This document shows positions 1 through 12,649 of a stretch of 32,187 nucleotides of DNA, piece by piece. The DNA comes from a virus: positions 1-32,187 of the IMG/VR virus record IMGVR_UViG_3300002061_000002; one strand, 5' to 3'. The first letter of the stretch is position 1, and each line of letters starts with the position of its first letter. Below the pieces are notes generated by a model, which worked only from the letters and a program-made list of their open reading frames with translations, ran no database searches and was not told the origin of the DNA. Made by a program: the position numbers and the translations under genes.

Positions 1-49
1 AATGTGATGGTACGACGGGTCTAGGTAGGCTTTTTTAAAGTGATTGTTA
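1..49. repeat. Terminal direct repeat, left copy, identical to 32139..32187
   Basis: Base-by-base comparison: aatgtgatggtacgacgggtctaggtaggcttttttaaagtgattgtta occurs at both window ends. Confidence 0.97.
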
Positions 50-624
50 AACCACGGGTTACCAATCTTAATGAGGAAGTTATCGGGGTTGTCACCAATC
101 ATACGGTAAATCTTGGCTTCATCGCTGTCGCTAATTAGGCCTGCCTCGTCCATAATCAAGTTAGGACTACCAAACCCCATAGTAGTGGTGGCTGCAAACG
201 TACGTACCTCTCCACCCCTTAAAAAGGTAATGTGGTCACGGCTCCGACGCTGTGTCATTTGCTCGGTTTTGATTGTCTTAGCTTCTACCGCCAGTAACTT
301 GCTGATTACAGGGTCGTTTACGCTAAATTGAATTGCGTAGTCCATGATGATTTGTGCCTGCTCTTTGGTAGGCGCTACAATTACCCACGGCTCACGTTTT
401 GTCGCTGCTCGGATAGCTACACACGCTCCGATAATCATAGACTTACCGTATCGAGTATGTGCCATGATGTGCACCTTTTTCTTTCCGTCTGGTGCCTCAC
501 GGTAAATAATTGGGGTAGCAATATCTATCTGCCCTGGGGTGATGTTTTCGTTTAGGTCGATACCCTCCTTGGTGACAAGGTTAAACGTGCCTAGAATATC
601 TACAATCGGTGTTTTATTTGTCAT
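1..624 (-). CDS. terL: Terminase large subunit, N-terminal ATPase part. The ORF runs off the window start and continues at 32138. The full ORF, 624->1 plus 32138->31323, is 479 aa.
   Basis: Manual translation from the ATG at 624 gives MTNKTPIVDILGTF... It has a Walker A-like AHTRYGKS and a Walker B-like NLIMDEAG. The frame is continuous across the 49-bp overlap. There is an ATGA start/stop overlap with ORF 621..806. Confidence 0.85.
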   Translation of the reverse strand, partial: MTNKTPIVDILGTFNLVTKEGIDLNENITPGQIDIATPIIYREAPDGKKKVHIMAHTRYGKSMIIGACVAIRAATKREPWVIVAPTKEQAQIIMDYAIQFSVNDPVISKLLAVEAKTIKTEQMTQRRSRDHITFLRGGEVRTFAATTTMGFGSPNLIMDEAGLISDSDEAKIYRMIGDNPDNFLIKIGNPWFNNHFKKAYLDPSYHHI

Positions 625-806
625 ACAACAAAAGGTAGCGGTGCATTCTCATAAAATCCATTTTCCTCTGTGATTTTTTCTAACATACCTAACCCCTTGG
701 CCTTTTTCTTTAGTTCTTTCATCTGCCGCGGCGTTAGCACTATGTAGTAAGTACTACTTACAATCATGTCTATAAACATCTTGTCGTACTTAGTTGTTTT
801 GTTCAT
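621..806 (-). CDS. Hypothetical protein (61 aa) immediately upstream of terL
   Basis: ORF-track entry. Its stop overlaps the terL start (ATGA). It sits where small terminases often do, but no motif was recognised. Confidence 0.5.
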   Translation of the reverse strand: MNKTTKYDKMFIDMIVSSTYYIVLTPRQMKELKKKAKGLGMLEKITEENGFYENAPLPFVV

Positions 807-1233
807 ACTTGGCTATTTCATCCTCCATAAACTCCACTTCGGCAGTAGTGAATGTATGGCGGTATTTGTTTAGTAACTTGCGACTAGCTGTGTAGATAAT
901 TGTTTGCATAAGCTGGTTACGCTCTTGCTTGTCTTTTTCTTTCTCTATATCGTCTCGCTCGTCATAGGCACGTACTAGCATTTGGTCAATACGTATATGT
1001 GTTAGTTCGATATGGTTTTTCATGTGCCACCCGCCTAAAGTATTGCCTTTCATAAATAAATCGCTGTCTGAGTCGCGTAGCTGCGCGACTGCCTCTGTAT
1101 GTGCTGTCTGAATACTAAAAGCCGCTACCGCTGCATTGTAAATACACACCTCACCCTGGGGGCTTTGGGCGTGCAAGCTAACAAAGTAGATAGCGGGCTG
1201 GGTTGTTTGTTGTGGCTCGTTAAAACTGAGCAT
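790..1233 (-). CDS. Hypothetical protein with the start re-assigned to ATG 1233 (147 aa). The ORF-track start, GTG 1344, would read through a tRNA-like gene.
   Basis: The open frame is 790..1344. Codons 17-36 of that frame coincide with a complete tRNA-like fold (1235..1293). The first ATG after the fold is at 1233 (MLSFNEPQQ...). Confidence 0.5.
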   Translation of the reverse strand: MLSFNEPQQTTQPAIYFVSLHAQSPQGEVCIYNAAVAAFSIQTAHTEAVAQLRDSDSDLFMKGNTLGGWHMKNHIELTHIRIDQMLVRAYDERDDIEKEKDKQERNQLMQTIIYTASRKLLNKYRHTFTTAEVEFMEDEIAKYEQNN

Positions 1234-1234
1234 A

Positions 1235-1293
1235 CGCGTATGGTGTGAATCGAACACACGCACCAGCGGCTCTACCATCTGAGCTACATACGC
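1235..1293 (-). ncRNA. tRNA-like RNA with no anticodon arm (58 nt plus discriminator)
   Basis: The minus strand reads GCGTATG TA GCTC AGATGGTA GAGC CGCTGGTGC GTGTG TTCGATT CACAC CATACGC G. This gives a perfect 7-bp acceptor stem and a 4-bp D stem with a canonical GG loop. The T stem is a perfect 5 bp with a TTCGATT loop. Only 9 nt sit where the anticodon arm and variable loop belong. Confidence 0.6.
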
Positions 1294-1319
1294 ATATAGG
1301 TTGGCGTTGTGGTGGACTG

Positions 1320-1370
1320 TATATCTCACGCCTAGAGTCTCCACTCTCTACCTATACGTCACTCCTAAGT
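1320..1370 (-). repeat. Two tandem copies of the motif TAGG(A/C)GTGA(C/G)(G/A)TAT. A third copy is at 1681..1698.
   Basis: The minus strand has CTTAGGAGTGACGTATAGG (1351..1370) and CTCTAGGCGTGAGATATAC (about 1320..1338). Compare CTCCTAGAGTGACGTGCGT at 1681..1698. Confidence 0.5.
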
Positions 1371-1387
1371 TTGCCGCCATCTTCCTT

Positions 1388-1404
1388 ACCGGGTCGCGAC
1401 CGGT
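1388..1404 (-). other. Hairpin with a 5-bp stem and 7-nt loop (ACCGG TCGCGAC CCGGT on the minus strand)
   Basis: Inverted repeat read directly from the sequence. It lies between the two tRNA-like genes. Confidence 0.4.
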
Positions 1405-1438
1405 TCGTACACAATGAGTGCTCGCTTATTTATGACTG

Positions 1439-1461
1439 GCTAGCCACGGCTGTAGGCTAGC
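1439..1461 (-). other. Hairpin with a 7-bp stem and 9-nt loop (GCTAGCC ... GGCTAGC)
   Basis: Perfect 7-bp inverted repeat read directly, 3 nt downstream of tRNA-like gene 1465..1549. No U-tract follows. Confidence 0.45.
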
Positions 1462-1464
1462 TTA

Positions 1465-1549
1465 TGGTACACGGCTGAATCGAACAGCATTTCCCGGTTC
1501 AAGTGTGGCCACACGGCCGGGCGTCTTACCAACTTAGACGACTAGTACC
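1465..1549 (-). ncRNA. tRNA-Gln-like RNA with a 12-nt palindrome interrupting the anticodon loop
   Basis: The minus strand reads GGTACTA GT CGTC TAAGTTGGTAA GACG CCCGG CC[GTGTGGCCACAC]TTGAA CCGGG AAAT GCTG TTCGATT CAGC C GTGTACC A. The D arm and anticodon stem resemble bacterial tRNA-Gln. The loop is 19 nt. The acceptor base has mismatches at 6:67 and 7:66, and the T stem at 49:65. Confidence 0.5.
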
Positions 1550-1680
1550 GTACATACCGGGTATAGCGTTGCATATTAGACAATCAACCCCGTAGAGTGT
1601 TTAGCCTGGTCGCTATCGCATATACCTAGTATGTAATGAGGGTTTTGTCCGGATTGTCCCTTATAAAGCGCCTAACAAGT

Positions 1681-1698
1681 ACGCACGTCACTCTAGGA
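1681..1698 (-). repeat. Third copy of the TAG(G)AGTGACGT motif, at the upstream edge of the non-coding island
   Basis: The minus strand has CTCCTAGAGTGACGTGCGT. It shares AGTGACGT plus TAG with the 1351..1370 copy. Confidence 0.45.
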
Positions 1699-1720
1699 GA
1701 AATGTGCCGGGGCGCCGGTA
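1697..1720 (-). terminator. Possible weak intrinsic terminator after ORF 1723..2268
   Basis: The minus strand has TACCGG CGCC CCGGCA followed by CATTTCTCC. The stem is 6 bp including one G-U pair, and the T-tract is modest. It starts 2 nt after the stop codon. Confidence 0.35.
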
Positions 1721-1722
1721 GT

Positions 1723-2268
1723 TTATTCTCCTGTTTCTTCCTCTGCCTTAGCTTTTTCCTCCTCAATTTTCTTTGTAATCTTTTCTCGGTACGCGTCGGT
1801 TACGCCAAACGGCTTACCATTACGCTGCCCCCAGTTCTCTGGGTTGAGTCCGCATTTTTCACAAGCTGTACCCTCCTCGTTTAGGACGTGTTCACAGTTA
1901 GCTCGCATGTGTAGGTTATCGGCCATAGCTTCGTGCCATGCTTTCATTTTGGCCTCCTTTTTCTTGCGGTAAGGTCGTAGTACGGTCATTGCTCGTGCAA
2001 TCGTAGGTACTTTCGGGTCGGTAAGCATTTCGGCTCGAATTTCTACCGCTGCCATCTGACATAGTGCGGTGTACCGTCGCATAAACTCCTCTCCAATTTC
2101 CTGGGCTTGTTTCTGAATATCCTCGTCTAGCTTGCGTAGAGTCTTTTTGTCTGGTTTGTTAGCCCCCGGCATTTCGTAGGTGTGTTTGCGGTCTTGCATT
2201 TCCGCTAAACGGTCGCGGTTGCTTTCTAGTAGTTGGTCGCTCCACCCCTCTTTGTTTTTGTCGGTCAT
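1723..2268 (-). CDS. Hypothetical protein (181 aa), Lys/Glu-rich, with CEHV...CEKC cysteines near the C-terminus
   Basis: ORF track. Tightly packed with its neighbours on the same strand. Confidence 0.65.
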   Translation of the reverse strand: MTDKNKEGWSDQLLESNRDRLAEMQDRKHTYEMPGANKPDKKTLRKLDEDIQKQAQEIGEEFMRRYTALCQMAAVEIRAEMLTDPKVPTIARAMTVLRPYRKKKEAKMKAWHEAMADNLHMRANCEHVLNEEGTACEKCGLNPENWGQRNGKPFGVTDAYREKITKKIEEEKAKAEEETGE

Positions 2269-9423: not shown

Positions 9424-9855
9424 TTATTCTGGTGGCTCCTCGTTATCCATTTCCTCGTCGTGCGGTACCTCGCGTCCGTCTTCGGTTGGGTCGTCTAGGT
9501 CACTGGTTACCTCAACATAATTTTTAGCCCCTGCCTTTTTTAGCTCCATGGTAATAACATTACCGGGCGCGAAACTACCCATACGTTGTATTAGGTATGT
9601 AGGCTCGTTATTATCATCATTTAACTTAGTTTCGTAGCGGTGTGGCTTGCCGTCTAGCAGCACGTTGTACCGCATGTAAAACTTTTCCTGGTTGTCTTTA
9701 GGGTCAATCTTCTTAATTATTTTGTCGTCTACTAGCTCTACTGTTTTAGCGCCTAGGGCTTTTACGCCTCCTCCGGGTAGCTTTTCCCCTAGCCGTAGCT
9801 TAGGGTATAGCTTTGCCTTGGCTAGTATTTCGGTTGTGTTTTTTAGTCCGTCCAT
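9424..9855 (-). CDS. Possible single-stranded-DNA-binding or annealing protein (143 aa)
   Basis: It has a strongly acidic C-terminal tail (DDPTEDGREVPHDEEMDNEEPPE), as in many phage SSBs. It lies between the nuclease and the HNH/NinB genes. No diagnostic motif was seen. Confidence 0.3.
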   Translation of the reverse strand: MDGLKNTTEILAKAKLYPKLRLGEKLPGGGVKALGAKTVELVDDKIIKKIDPKDNQEKFYMRYNVLLDGKPHRYETKLNDDNNEPTYLIQRMGSFAPGNVITMELKKAGAKNYVEVTSDLDDPTEDGREVPHDEEMDNEEPPE

Positions 9856-11174: not shown

Positions 11175-11197
11175 CTATTTGTATCACATACAAATAG
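11175..11197 (-). promoter_or_regulatory. Early promoter with a perfect 23-bp palindrome, CTATTTGTAT-CAC-ATACAAATAG. The extended -10, TGATACAAA, is at 11178..11186.
   Basis: Palindrome read directly. It shares the TGTGATACAA core with sites at 12663 and 15154. It is intergenic, 23 nt upstream of the ATG at 11152. Confidence 0.55.
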
Positions 11198-11215
11198 ATA
11201 CCGCCAGTGGATAAC

Positions 11216-12649
11216 TTAACCCTTATTTTTAGCCACAATTTTACGCACCAGGTCGGCGGTAATATCTCCTCCTGTGGCTTCTCCTCCCTCTAATATCTCG
11301 TCAATTACTTTCTGTTTTACCTCTAATAAATCTGCTATGTCTTGGTCTACTGTATTCTCGGCTAAGTAGTAGTGTACGTTCACTTGTTTGTGCTGCCCGA
11401 TACGGTGCGCCCGGTCTTCTGCCTGTGCGTTTTGCGCTGGCGTCCATGCCATGTCGGCAAACAAAACAGTATTAGCAGCGGTGAGGGTGAGTCCTACTCC
11501 GGCTGCTTGTATGTTGCCGATAAATACAGGGGTATCTCCCTCCTGTATAGCGTCTACTGACGCGGTACGGCTCCTCATGTCGTCGCTACCAGTTAGCGTA
11601 ACGCTCTTTATCTTTTTAGCTTGCAGCTTACGTTGTAGCGCACTAATTGTATCGTTATACCCACTAAACACGAGTACCTTTTCCCCCTGCTCTACAATCT
11701 CTGATATGTCCTCTACCATGCGGTCTATCTTACCTGTGCTGGCTAGTTGTTTAAGTTTTCCTAGTTCGATAAGGTGTCGCGCCATCTGTGCGTTTACCAT
11801 TTTACGTTGACTGACTTTTGGGTCACTTTCTAAATAATCAATATAGTTTTCCCACGCATCGTTGTATTTTTTACGGTACTCGTCTGATAGCTGGACGGAT
11901 ACGGTGTCTACAATCTTGGCTGGTATTTTGTCCCCTAGTTCATCTTTGGTGCGACGTAGATACACGGGCATTAGTTTTAGAGATAGCTCGTTTAGGTTGC
12001 TAGCCCCGGTAGTTTTTAGAAACTGCATTTTACGTTTTACAGGCTTACCGTACTTATCGGTAATAACTCGCCCTCGTGAGTCGAGCATATTTTTATAAAA
12101 AACAATTTCTTGTGCGTCGCAATACCGGTGTACAAACTTCCACCAGCTTTGCCCTAACTCATGGTCTATGGCTTCCAGTAGGGTAAATAGCTCCTCTGGC
12201 CGGTTCATTATCGGGGTACCAGTTAGTAGGTACAGGTGCTCTAGCTGTTTTGCTAAACGTAACGCTGTTTTCGTTCGTTTTGTGCCTTTGTTTTTGATGT
12301 AGTGCGCCTCGTCGTATATACCTACCTTGGCACGTAAATTATCTATATGACGCTCAAGAATATCATAGTTGATTATCGACCATACAATATCGCCGCCATC
12401 CTGATACGTGTAAGCCTTACCACCGTCGTATATATTGACGGTATCTGTTACCCCGGCTGCTACAATCTCTCTCGCCCAGTTTTCTTTTAGGCTAGCAGGG
12501 CATACTATTACTTTATCTAAATGTACAGTGTTAGCAGCTAATATAGCACTGTAAGTCTTACCCAAACCCATGCAATCGGCTAATATAGCTTTTTGTTTTT
12601 CCCGTAAAAAGTCGCGGGCTTTTTCTTGGTGTTTAAATGGTGTTCTCAT
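11216..12649 (-). CDS. SNF2/RAD54-family DEAD/H helicase-ATPase (477 aa)
   Basis: Motif I is DCMGLGKT, motif II IYDEAHYIKN and motif III LLTGTPIMNRPEELF. Motifs V and VI are GNIQAAGVGLTLTAANTV and QAEDRAHRIGQ. Confidence 0.93.
   Translation of the reverse strand: MRTPFKHQEKARDFLREKQKAILADCMGLGKTYSAILAANTVHLDKVIVCPASLKENWAREIVAAGVTDTVNIYDGGKAYTYQDGGDIVWSIINYDILERHIDNLRAKVGIYDEAHYIKNKGTKRTKTALRLAKQLEHLYLLTGTPIMNRPEELFTLLEAIDHELGQSWWKFVHRYCDAQEIVFYKNMLDSRGRVITDKYGKPVKRKMQFLKTTGASNLNELSLKLMPVYLRRTKDELGDKIPAKIVDTVSVQLSDEYRKKYNDAWENYIDYLESDPKVSQRKMVNAQMARHLIELGKLKQLASTGKIDRMVEDISEIVEQGEKVLVFSGYNDTISALQRKLQAKKIKSVTLTGSDDMRSRTASVDAIQEGDTPVFIGNIQAAGVGLTLTAANTVLFADMAWTPAQNAQAEDRAHRIGQHKQVNVHYYLAENTVDQDIADLLEVKQKVIDEILEGGEATGGDITADLVRKIVAKNKG

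Follow-up and report, generated by a model that had tools for sequence, protein, structure and literature searches.

A tRNA-like gene without an anticodon arm ahead of a phage packaging operon, and its counterparts in other phages and prophages

Why would a phage carry a gene that has the shape of a tRNA and lacks the part that decodes? The question is raised by a 59-nt element on the minus strand (1293..1235) of IMG/VR virus record IMGVR_UViG_3300002061_000002, whose full stretch of 32,187 nucleotides is called the window here. The element reads GCGTATG-TA-GCTC-AGATGGTA-GAGC-CGCTGGTGC-GTGTG-TTCGATT-CACAC-CATACGC-G and comprises the acceptor 5' strand (1293-1287), U8 and A9 (1286-1285), a D arm (1284-1269), a 9-nt linker (1268-1260), a T arm (1259-1243), the acceptor 3' strand (1242-1236) and a discriminator G (1235). 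The acceptor, D and T stems of 7, 4 and 5 bp consist of Watson-Crick pairs throughout (16/16), and the canonical loop residues U8, A14, G15, G18, G19, A21, T54-T55-C56 and A58 are all present. An ordinary tRNA holds 22-23 nt between its D and T arms; here there are 9, the last of which is C, and a C at this position is the usual partner of G15. Behind the discriminator follow T1234 and an ATG (1233-1231), and no CCA is encoded. An earlier sequence-only reading of the window had described the three-armed fold with its perfect acceptor stem, the 9-nt connection and the first ATG 1 nt past the discriminator, and the letters on the minus strand match that description exactly.

The same reading judged the fold very unlikely to arise by chance, and covariance models agree. 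The Rfam tRNA model RF00005 aligned with the element over model positions 1-71 at 44.5 bits (gathering score 29, E = 3e-8) on a short slice searched with laxer filters, handling the anticodon arm as a deletion with 5 nt against 18 model positions. R1, a covariance model built from armless elements whose training set includes the window sequence, gave 66.4 bits. Detection by tRNA finders, which had been suggested as a check, came out divided: the Rfam tRNA model succeeded on the slice, while ARAGORN called nothing here on the window and a whole-window Rfam search with default filters missed the element, so standard annotation would overlook it. Its folding energy is mildly unusual (z = -2.1). 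The element thus has the three helices and a score above the Rfam tRNA threshold without the defining anticodon arm (5-bp stem, 7-nt loop), so it is not a functional tRNA. A weak R1 match elsewhere in the window (9789-9826, plus strand, that is the non-coding strand, within gene 9424-9855; 16.1 bits, E about 0.01) consists only of an acceptor-like helix and a D-arm-like hairpin and is probably due to chance.

Origin from a phage tRNA-Ile(UAU) and loss of AUA decoding

The large terminase (TerL) encoded downstream of the element has 235 homologues, some with Pfam Terminase_6N, and the relatives they identify are phages of 32-36 kb from aquatic and aquifer metagenomes, one of them binned with a Candidatus Moranbacteria metagenome-assembled genome (MAG). 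We retrieved the regions upstream of TerL, or of a 146-aa gene, from these relatives (loci are cited by L numbers). Wherever a related locus has a tRNA at the position of the element, it is an intact tRNA-Ile(UAU) (10/10 loci, at least seven distinct phages; TerL identity 55-74% where measured). The intact genes (L265, L266, L267/L268, L269-L271, L275/L276, L142 and L143) score 59-77 bits with Rfam, share an invariant anticodon loop CUUAUAC and encode no CCA. In the relatives' leaders the tRNAs are ordered with Leu(UAG) first, Tyr and Ser present or absent, and Ile-UAU last; L272/L273 have tRNA-Leu only upstream of the 146/147-aa gene, and L278-L283 have no tRNAs there. A more distant family member, L277, carries at the leader position (1609-1682) a tRNA-Val(AAC) and a 'tRNA-???' with normal acceptor, D and T arms and an abnormal anticodon region, a stem of ~4 bp with a 10-nt loop.

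Alignment of the window with the relatives' tRNA-Ile genes leaves one clean 14-nt gap, which spans the anticodon stem-loop. By this comparison the element is shown to be the orthologue of the phage tRNA-Ile(UAU) minus exactly its anticodon arm. It shares with its orthologues the position, strand, leader context and acceptor/D/T architecture, and passes the Rfam threshold as they do; it differs in lacking the 14-nt stem-loop, so that it cannot read AUA, in having G rather than A as discriminator, and in residing in a genome with lower AUA use. Since the anticodon arm is gone while the acceptor/T helix, the D arm and the elbow between D loop and T loop are kept, the element cannot decode. An R1 search of the window phage's family found the window to be the only armless version.

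The relatives also show where the downstream gene begins. Homologues of its protein are 146-147 aa long and align from M1, which corresponds to ATG 1233, and public gene calls start the gene at the same codon; the true start is therefore ATG 1233 and not GTG 1344, the start in the open reading frame (ORF) track that the sequence-only reading had suspected of annotating an RNA gene as protein. The alignment with related genomes that it proposed points the same way, as the stretch upstream of ATG 1233 is not conserved as amino acids and is a tRNA gene in relatives.

Codon usage follows phage tRNA content across the window and L265-L278. Among the phages with both tRNA-Ile and tRNA-Leu, AUA makes up 0.95 of Ile codons and CUA 0.89 of Leu codons in L265 (AUA in 39/41 TerL Ile codons), 0.90 and 0.78 in L267 (27/32), 0.72 and 0.76 in L269 (22/36), and 0.78 and 0.74 in L275 (25/33). 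The fractions are 0.64 and 0.51 in L272, which has tRNA-Leu only (TerL 18/28), and 0.51 and 0.12 in L278, which has no tRNAs (24/45). In the window, with its armless Ile remnant, they are 0.31 and 0.52 (TerL 6/37). AUA thus accounts for 31% of the window's Ile codons, against 72-95% in the relatives that keep tRNA-Ile, and since such a shift needs many substitutions, AUA decoding by the phage tRNA was probably lost long ago.

A neighbouring tRNA position offers a contrast. Where relatives have tRNA-Leu(UAG) or other tRNAs, the window has, on the minus strand at 1474..1540, a D-arm-like hairpin CGTCT-AAGTTGGTA-AGACG (1540-1522) and a T-arm-like 4-bp hairpin GCTG-TTCGATT-CAGC with a second GTTCGATTC motif (1488-1474); from their letters these are best read as fragments of a decayed tRNA. 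That position has decayed, whereas the element keeps all 16 pairs and every base engaged in tertiary contacts. A second armless tRNA-like gene at 1560..1465 was considered and rejected, as this stretch has no Rfam hit and reaches only 5-6 bits with R1 even with filters off. Codon usage, the intact structure, the decayed neighbouring position and the spacing to the AUG described below suggest that the element is probably not in fresh decay. The null option of the sequence-only reading, a decaying tRNA gene with an internal deletion, therefore holds for the origin (tRNA-Ile(UAU) minus a clean 14 nt), whereas 'decaying' sits poorly with the codon shift, the perfect structure and the existence of a recurrent class of such elements.

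Armless elements in other phages and prophages

To look for further cases we used a pattern consisting of a common D arm and T loop spaced too closely for an anticodon arm, which matched 56 IMG/VR contigs and 84 stretches in bacterial and archaeal genomes. After removal of N-containing assembly artefacts and of a separate Bacteroidota class, and with an acceptor of at least 6 of 7 bp and a T arm required, 50 distinct armless elements remained, in phages and prophages. A linker of 8 nt is commonest (21 elements), followed by 9 nt (9 elements), and the last linker base, C48, is invariant in 31/31 aligned sequences although it lies outside the search pattern. We define the class by a 7-bp acceptor, U8 and A9, a D arm, a 7-13-nt linker ending in C48, a T arm, a discriminator and location on the strand of the neighbouring genes; the window element has this make-up, with its 9-nt linker ending in C and its 66.4 bits with R1. 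Stem cells are paired in 99.6% of cases, as against about 41% with the partners slid, and eleven pairs carry changes on both sides, statistics that come from elements pre-filtered for pairing (43/57 raw hits passed the filter).

Between lineages the elements are 90-100% identical, while their flanks are 50-85% identical. The elements of L005 and L041 are 100% identical with flanks at 83% and 60%, those of L016 and L023 92% with flanks at about 53%, and those of L004 and L064 95% with flanks at about 50%. Relatives also differ by compensatory changes, C1-G72 to G1-C72 and C5-G68 to A5-U68. Judged by these alignments, the armless state demonstrably persists within lineages other than that of the window.

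Hosts include Actinomycetota, Lactobacillales, Proteobacteria, Bacteroidota and a methanogen MAG, and the copies found in genomes adjoin phage genes. Same-strand genes downstream of the elements are enriched in small terminase, large terminase and portal genes, and upstream lie genes of the end of the early region, a layout as in the window. All-against-all BLASTP of the neighbouring proteins revealed no shared partner. In Streptococcus phage Javan565 the counterpart of the element of a Streptococcus porci prophage (L025/L076) is a full tRNA-Phe(GAA), and armless elements have therefore had at least two independent origins, from tRNA-Ile in the window and from tRNA-Phe in the Streptococcus prophage. 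Javan565 itself (L285 ~2553-2700, MK448806) has two apparent tRNA genes, un-annotated in its GenBank record, between a hypothetical gene and the portal gene: Phe-GAA and a second directly behind it.

Cultured phages have armless elements as well. Polaribacter phages Danklef_1-5 carry a perfect 58-nt copy (MT732458, 43546-43603) that was absent from the R1 training set and scores 76.6 bits. Automatic annotation labels this copy 'tRNA-OTHER, Undet(NNN)', an ORF begins 13 nt behind it, and the paper describing Danklef only counts tRNAs. The Danklef and window elements have a common architecture in unrelated phages and with unrelated acceptor sequences, and their linkers measure 8 and 9 nt, respectively. 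In all, these comparisons indicate that armless tRNA-like genes form a recurrent, polyphyletic class in phages and prophages, with the window element as one member. The Microbacterium-type element had no match in INPHARED, and a single scan of metagenomes, with a pattern that was too narrow, returned one unrelated element only, with its acceptor stem unpaired.

Several members have features of their own. Danklef_1 (L284 1501-1558) and an Oleispira MAG (L062 1205-1262), from hosts of different phyla, share an identical 42-nt core from U8 through the T arm, including the linker TTTAGGTC, with unlike acceptor stems (GGGGAAG/CTTCTCC and AGTACTG/CAGTGCT, respectively). A G3:U70 pair occurs in some elements (L005/L041, L040/L067, L074 and L121), of which L005/L041 and L040/L067 also have discriminator A73, and L040/L067 encodes CCA (GGGCACG...CGTGTCC-A-CCA). 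In the acceptor stem, G3:U70 and A73 mark alanine identity, and judging from their letters some members could conceivably be aminoacylated. Viral contig L031 has a permuted tmRNA at 11194-11484 (Rfam tmRNA_permuted, 108 bits; tag ANDSDYGQALKAA) and, about 75 nt downstream, an armless tRNA-like at 11561-11618 (43.2 bits) whose acceptor helix can be extended with the flanks to about 16 bp (AAGGGATCGGATTCGG / CCGAGTCCGATCCCTT).

A scan for intermediate D-to-T spacing gave at least 120 IMG/VR loci (L145-L264). Among the matches listed, many (for example L229, L213, L170, L152, L151, L260, L246, L262 and L167) are full tRNA shapes with a 4-5-bp 'anticodon' stem and a 3-5-nt loop; the short loops are often UUCG- or GNRA-like (CTTGA-TTCG-TCAAG, CTAAG-GAAA-CTTAG, CTAC-GCAA-GTAG). 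Judged by sequence, phages seem to have a continuum of tRNA-shaped RNAs that do not decode. The separate class on Bacteroidota chromosomes (Chitinophagaceae, Spirosoma, Larkinella, Flavobacterium and others) is a different short tRNA-like with a D arm, an 11-13-nt linker beginning AACAG, a T arm, an unpaired acceptor and a hairpin after it; it occurs in L060, L065, L068, L069, L072, L073, L080, L082, L084, L086, L096, L103, L124, L127, L129 and others, in L103 directly behind a 7-tRNA array. Its identity as YrlA was not confirmed, Rfam giving only a partial tRNA hit. Finally, in many MAG assemblies (UBA; bog, fen and palsa sets) the anticodon region of an otherwise normal tRNA gene is replaced by a short run of N (L066, L075, L077, L081, L085, L091, L102, L104, L109, L111, L113, L122, L126, L131-L133, L137 and L139); such collapsed tRNAs imitate armless ones in pattern searches and are a trap for any census.

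Possible role at the head of the packaging operon

About 50 nt are shared between the two ends of the window, and the frame-1 terL translation runs across the junction; the window is a complete circular phage genome of about 32.1 kb. Every gene lies on the minus strand, and the ORF map, synteny and tRNA calls in relatives mark 1234..1722 (minus strand) as its sole large non-coding region, the leader of the packaging operon. The element occupies the 3' end of this leader, and downstream of it come, all on the minus strand, the 147-aa ORF in the position of a small terminase (790..1233), a small ORF (621..767; public gene calls give it 48 aa, and counting from an ATG farther upstream gives 61 aa) and terL. 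The distance from discriminator to AUG is 1 nt in the window, 2-5 nt in 9/10 relatives, where five distinct spacers occur, and 15 nt in L143. The genes of the window phage are without Shine-Dalgarno sequences and have A/T-rich, unstructured leaders, with the 147-aa ORF as the sole exception, its AUG being the only one that adjoins a folded GC-rich structure. When the full leader is folded, the acceptor helix can gain ~4 bp from the flanks and then overlaps that AUG. Around the element we found neither a sigma-70-type promoter nor an intrinsic terminator on the coding strand, and between the element and the 147-aa ORF no terminator.

We put at roughly 0.5 the probability that the element has a retained, non-decoding function with a main role as a cis processing signal, in the manner of the t-elements of plant mitochondria. 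Precursors of tRNAs without an encoded CCA are cut at their 3' side by RNase Z. In the proposed scheme the leader would be transcribed together with the downstream genes and fold into the tRNA core, RNase P would cut 5' of G1293, and RNase Z would cut after G1235, this being the 3' endonuclease expected because no CCA is encoded. The remaining mRNA would begin U-AUG and serve as a nearly leaderless message for the 147-aa protein, the small ORF and TerL; in an uncut transcript the AUG would lie against, and partly inside, a stable helix. The freed 59-nt RNA may gain CCA and tRNA modifications, and a further role in trans is possible. We infer both the cleavages and the leaderless translation. 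A processing site of this kind ahead of terL had been among the roles offered by the sequence-only reading, and of these it appears to fit the anatomy best because the AUG stands 1-5 nt past the discriminator in the window and in 9/10 relatives. The tight spacing in the relatives implies that a tRNA body already sat where the 5' end of the downstream message must form. [quoted passage not shown]

Seen more widely, and with chances that we consider even, the window element would be a functional member of a widespread, polyphyletic phage class of selected non-decoding tRNA-shaped RNAs that act as RNase P/Z punctuation in cis, as decoys in trans, or both. On the same footing, phages would repeatedly convert their own tRNA genes in this way, decoding being lost either with the arm or by conversion of the anticodon loop to a tetraloop.

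Several points weigh against retention for processing. The window phage is the sole armless member of its family and comes from one metagenomic source, so comparison cannot demonstrate selection after the deletion in its own lineage, and the pairing statistics of the class carry the filter bias noted above. The shift in codon usage could be older than the deletion, which might be very recent, and AUA still stands at 19-21 per 1000 codons in the window phage. The tight spacing between tRNA and AUG may be no more than a consequence of how compact phage genomes are. Elsewhere, armless lineages often have 11-90 nt or more before the next ORF, which weakens the case for one cis mechanism throughout the class, and the putative RNase Z and leaderless-translation steps presuppose a host capable of both.

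A recently inactivated tRNA-Ile, left functionless by a neutral or slightly harmful internal deletion and perfect in structure only for want of time to decay, is an explanation that we regard as rather unlikely. In its favour, hairpins are prone to deletion, the orthologues are intact, the window phage is the only armless member of its family and has one source genome, and both AUA (about 20 per 1000) and CUA (about 36-38 per 1000) are still in use in this phage. What speaks for an older loss is the fall of AUA from 72-95% to 31% of Ile codons (TerL 6/37), which took many substitutions, together with the preservation of 16/16 pairs and the tertiary bases next to a decayed tRNA position, and the persistence of the armless state elsewhere, with compensatory changes and conservation above the flanks.

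More doubtful is a decoy or sponge acting in trans, also raised by the sequence-only reading, in which the armless RNA, once cut out and tailed with CCA, would stay out of translation and sequester a host factor that binds the elbow or acceptor end, for instance a defence toxin aimed at tRNAs. What the element retains is what elbow- and acceptor-binding proteins read; the class extends across many host phyla with a highly conserved core and free acceptor stems, as between Danklef and the Oleispira MAG (L062); and some members have G3:U70 and A73, L040 with CCA as well, consistent with alanine identity. Yet there is no conserved partner protein, no defence-related neighbour stood out, neither a sigma-70-type promoter nor a terminator belonging to the window element could be recognised, literature support was not found, and the 1-5-nt spacing to the AUG would be left unexplained.

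It is very improbable that a normal tRNA-Ile gene merely seems to have lost 14 nt through an error of assembly or sequencing. The genome is metagenome-assembled, and N-containing collapsed tRNAs do exist in some MAG assemblies; however, no long repeat flanks the arm to permit assembly collapse, the public scaffold carries the identical sequence, genome-wide codon usage fits an absent decoding tRNA-Ile(UAU), and both isolate genomes and the five Danklef phages, each sequenced independently, contain armless elements. That 1234..1344 instead encodes an N-terminal extension of a 184-aa protein can practically be dismissed: the frame from GTG 1344 is open, but all homologues are 146-147 aa long and start at the equivalent of ATG 1233, and relatives hold a tRNA gene here instead of coding sequence.

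Around these features, the window has recognisable genes for terminase, portal, major head protein, an endolysin-like peptidase, helicase, exonuclease, HNH endonuclease and ParB/methyltransferase, on a coding strand that is strongly A-rich and T-poor; no further tRNA was detected in the genome by ARAGORN or by Rfam with default filters. The 5' part of terL, which encodes a 479-aa protein, lies at 1..624 (minus strand), with the remainder beyond the circular junction, at the window's right end. The leader is directly preceded by a gene for 181 aa (1723..2268, minus strand), and relatives have a gene for 178-184 aa at the same position. The 147-aa protein matches no Pfam or PHROG family, the proteins flanking the element have no relatives in IMG/VR and no PHROG or Pfam family, and a megablast of INPHARED with the locus found no match.

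Within the window phage's family, no non-coding stretch is better conserved than the start of the leader. Just past the stop codon of the upstream gene, a GC-rich hairpin CCGG-CGCC-CCGG (1707..1718, minus strand) is conserved in our A5 alignment, in which, across four phages, a strongly conserved block TGCGTACTTGTTAGGCGC ... GACAAT..CGACAAAACCCT (1639..1685, minus strand) also stands out. This block holds a possible hairpin (G)TAGGG/CCCTA(C) with a conserved loop and is, by its conservation, a possible candidate for a promoter or a regulatory RNA. Farther down, three phages share a hairpin with a covarying 7-bp stem and the loop motif CAGCCGU (1439..1461, minus strand; GCTAGCC-TACAGCCGT-GGCTAGC), with stems GCTAGCC/GGCTAGC in the window, GTAGGCC/GGCCTAC in L142 (~159-181) and GCTAACC/GGTTAGC in L143 (~131-153). 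This hairpin also forms in computed folds. The idea that the whole 490-nt leader forms one unusually stable RNA found no support (z = -0.3).

Phage tRNAs are usually viewed as a codon supply or as an escape from anticodon nucleases. A recurrent armless class would mean that the tRNA shape itself has selectable value to phages, and this value may lie in transcript punctuation, in the formation of mRNA 5' ends or in factor binding. The window phage's family is a natural experiment in this respect, with AUA ranging from 95% down to 31% of Ile codons along with tRNA content, and the only member that lost decoding kept the tRNA fold. For annotation, armless genes are missed by ARAGORN and filtered Rfam searches or labelled 'tRNA-OTHER', they cause over-extended ORF starts, and they inflate or deflate phage tRNA counts. 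Should the cis-processing model prove true, a counterpart to the t-elements of plant mitochondria would be known from a bacterial virus for the first time, and the element could serve as a compact, naturally occurring part with which to produce leaderless mRNAs.

Comparison with known systems

tRNA-derived tRNA-like elements are already known as a kind; what is so far undescribed is that natural armless ones occur in phages, full-text literature searches having found no description of such genes there. The nearest laboratory parallels are synthetic pre-tRNAs with the anticodon arm deleted and model substrates made of acceptor and T arm, of the pAT type (PMC4975455), which have the architecture of the window element; those are constructs, whereas this is a natural gene with relatives in many phages. 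An attP site or other tRNA-fragment origin was ruled out, since both acceptor strands and the D arm are present.

The tRNA-like domain of tmRNA likewise combines an acceptor stem and a T arm without an anticodon arm and is recognised by tRNA enzymes (PMC3985003). The window element has G3-C70 where tmRNA has G3:U70, possesses a true D stem, and joins its acceptor strands contiguously through the 9-nt linker, while those of tmRNA are ~300 nt apart. A tmRNA-like domain was ruled out on the absence of G3:U70 and of a tag ORF or mRNA-like domain, with no tmRNA call from ARAGORN or Rfam. YrlA, a bacterial Y RNA (PMC4201824), keeps D arm, T arm and elbow without a decoding arm, as the window element does, but YrlA is permuted, has a closed-hairpin 'acceptor', has its two ends in a Ro60-binding helix and is encoded beside rsr, whereas the ends of the window element form an acceptor stem. 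No Ro60 was seen among the annotated window proteins, in a scan that covered part of the ORFs and with flanking genes that have no family hits; topology rules out identity with YrlA, and Rfam gave no Y RNA hit.

A possible functional parallel is offered by plant-mitochondrial t-elements such as that of A. thaliana nad6 (PMC5499578), which are also acceptor/T-arm mimics without an anticodon arm and also lie directly at the end of an mRNA coding region. For them, RNase P and/or RNase Z cleavage has been proposed to form mRNA ends, a cleavage that we infer for the window by analogy. The window element shares the armless acceptor/T mimicry and the position at an mRNA terminus; it resides in a bacteriophage and not in a plant mitochondrial genome, its sequence is unrelated, and with a perfect D arm and elbow it is far less degenerate. 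It is therefore not a member of the t-element family, but it may work like one.

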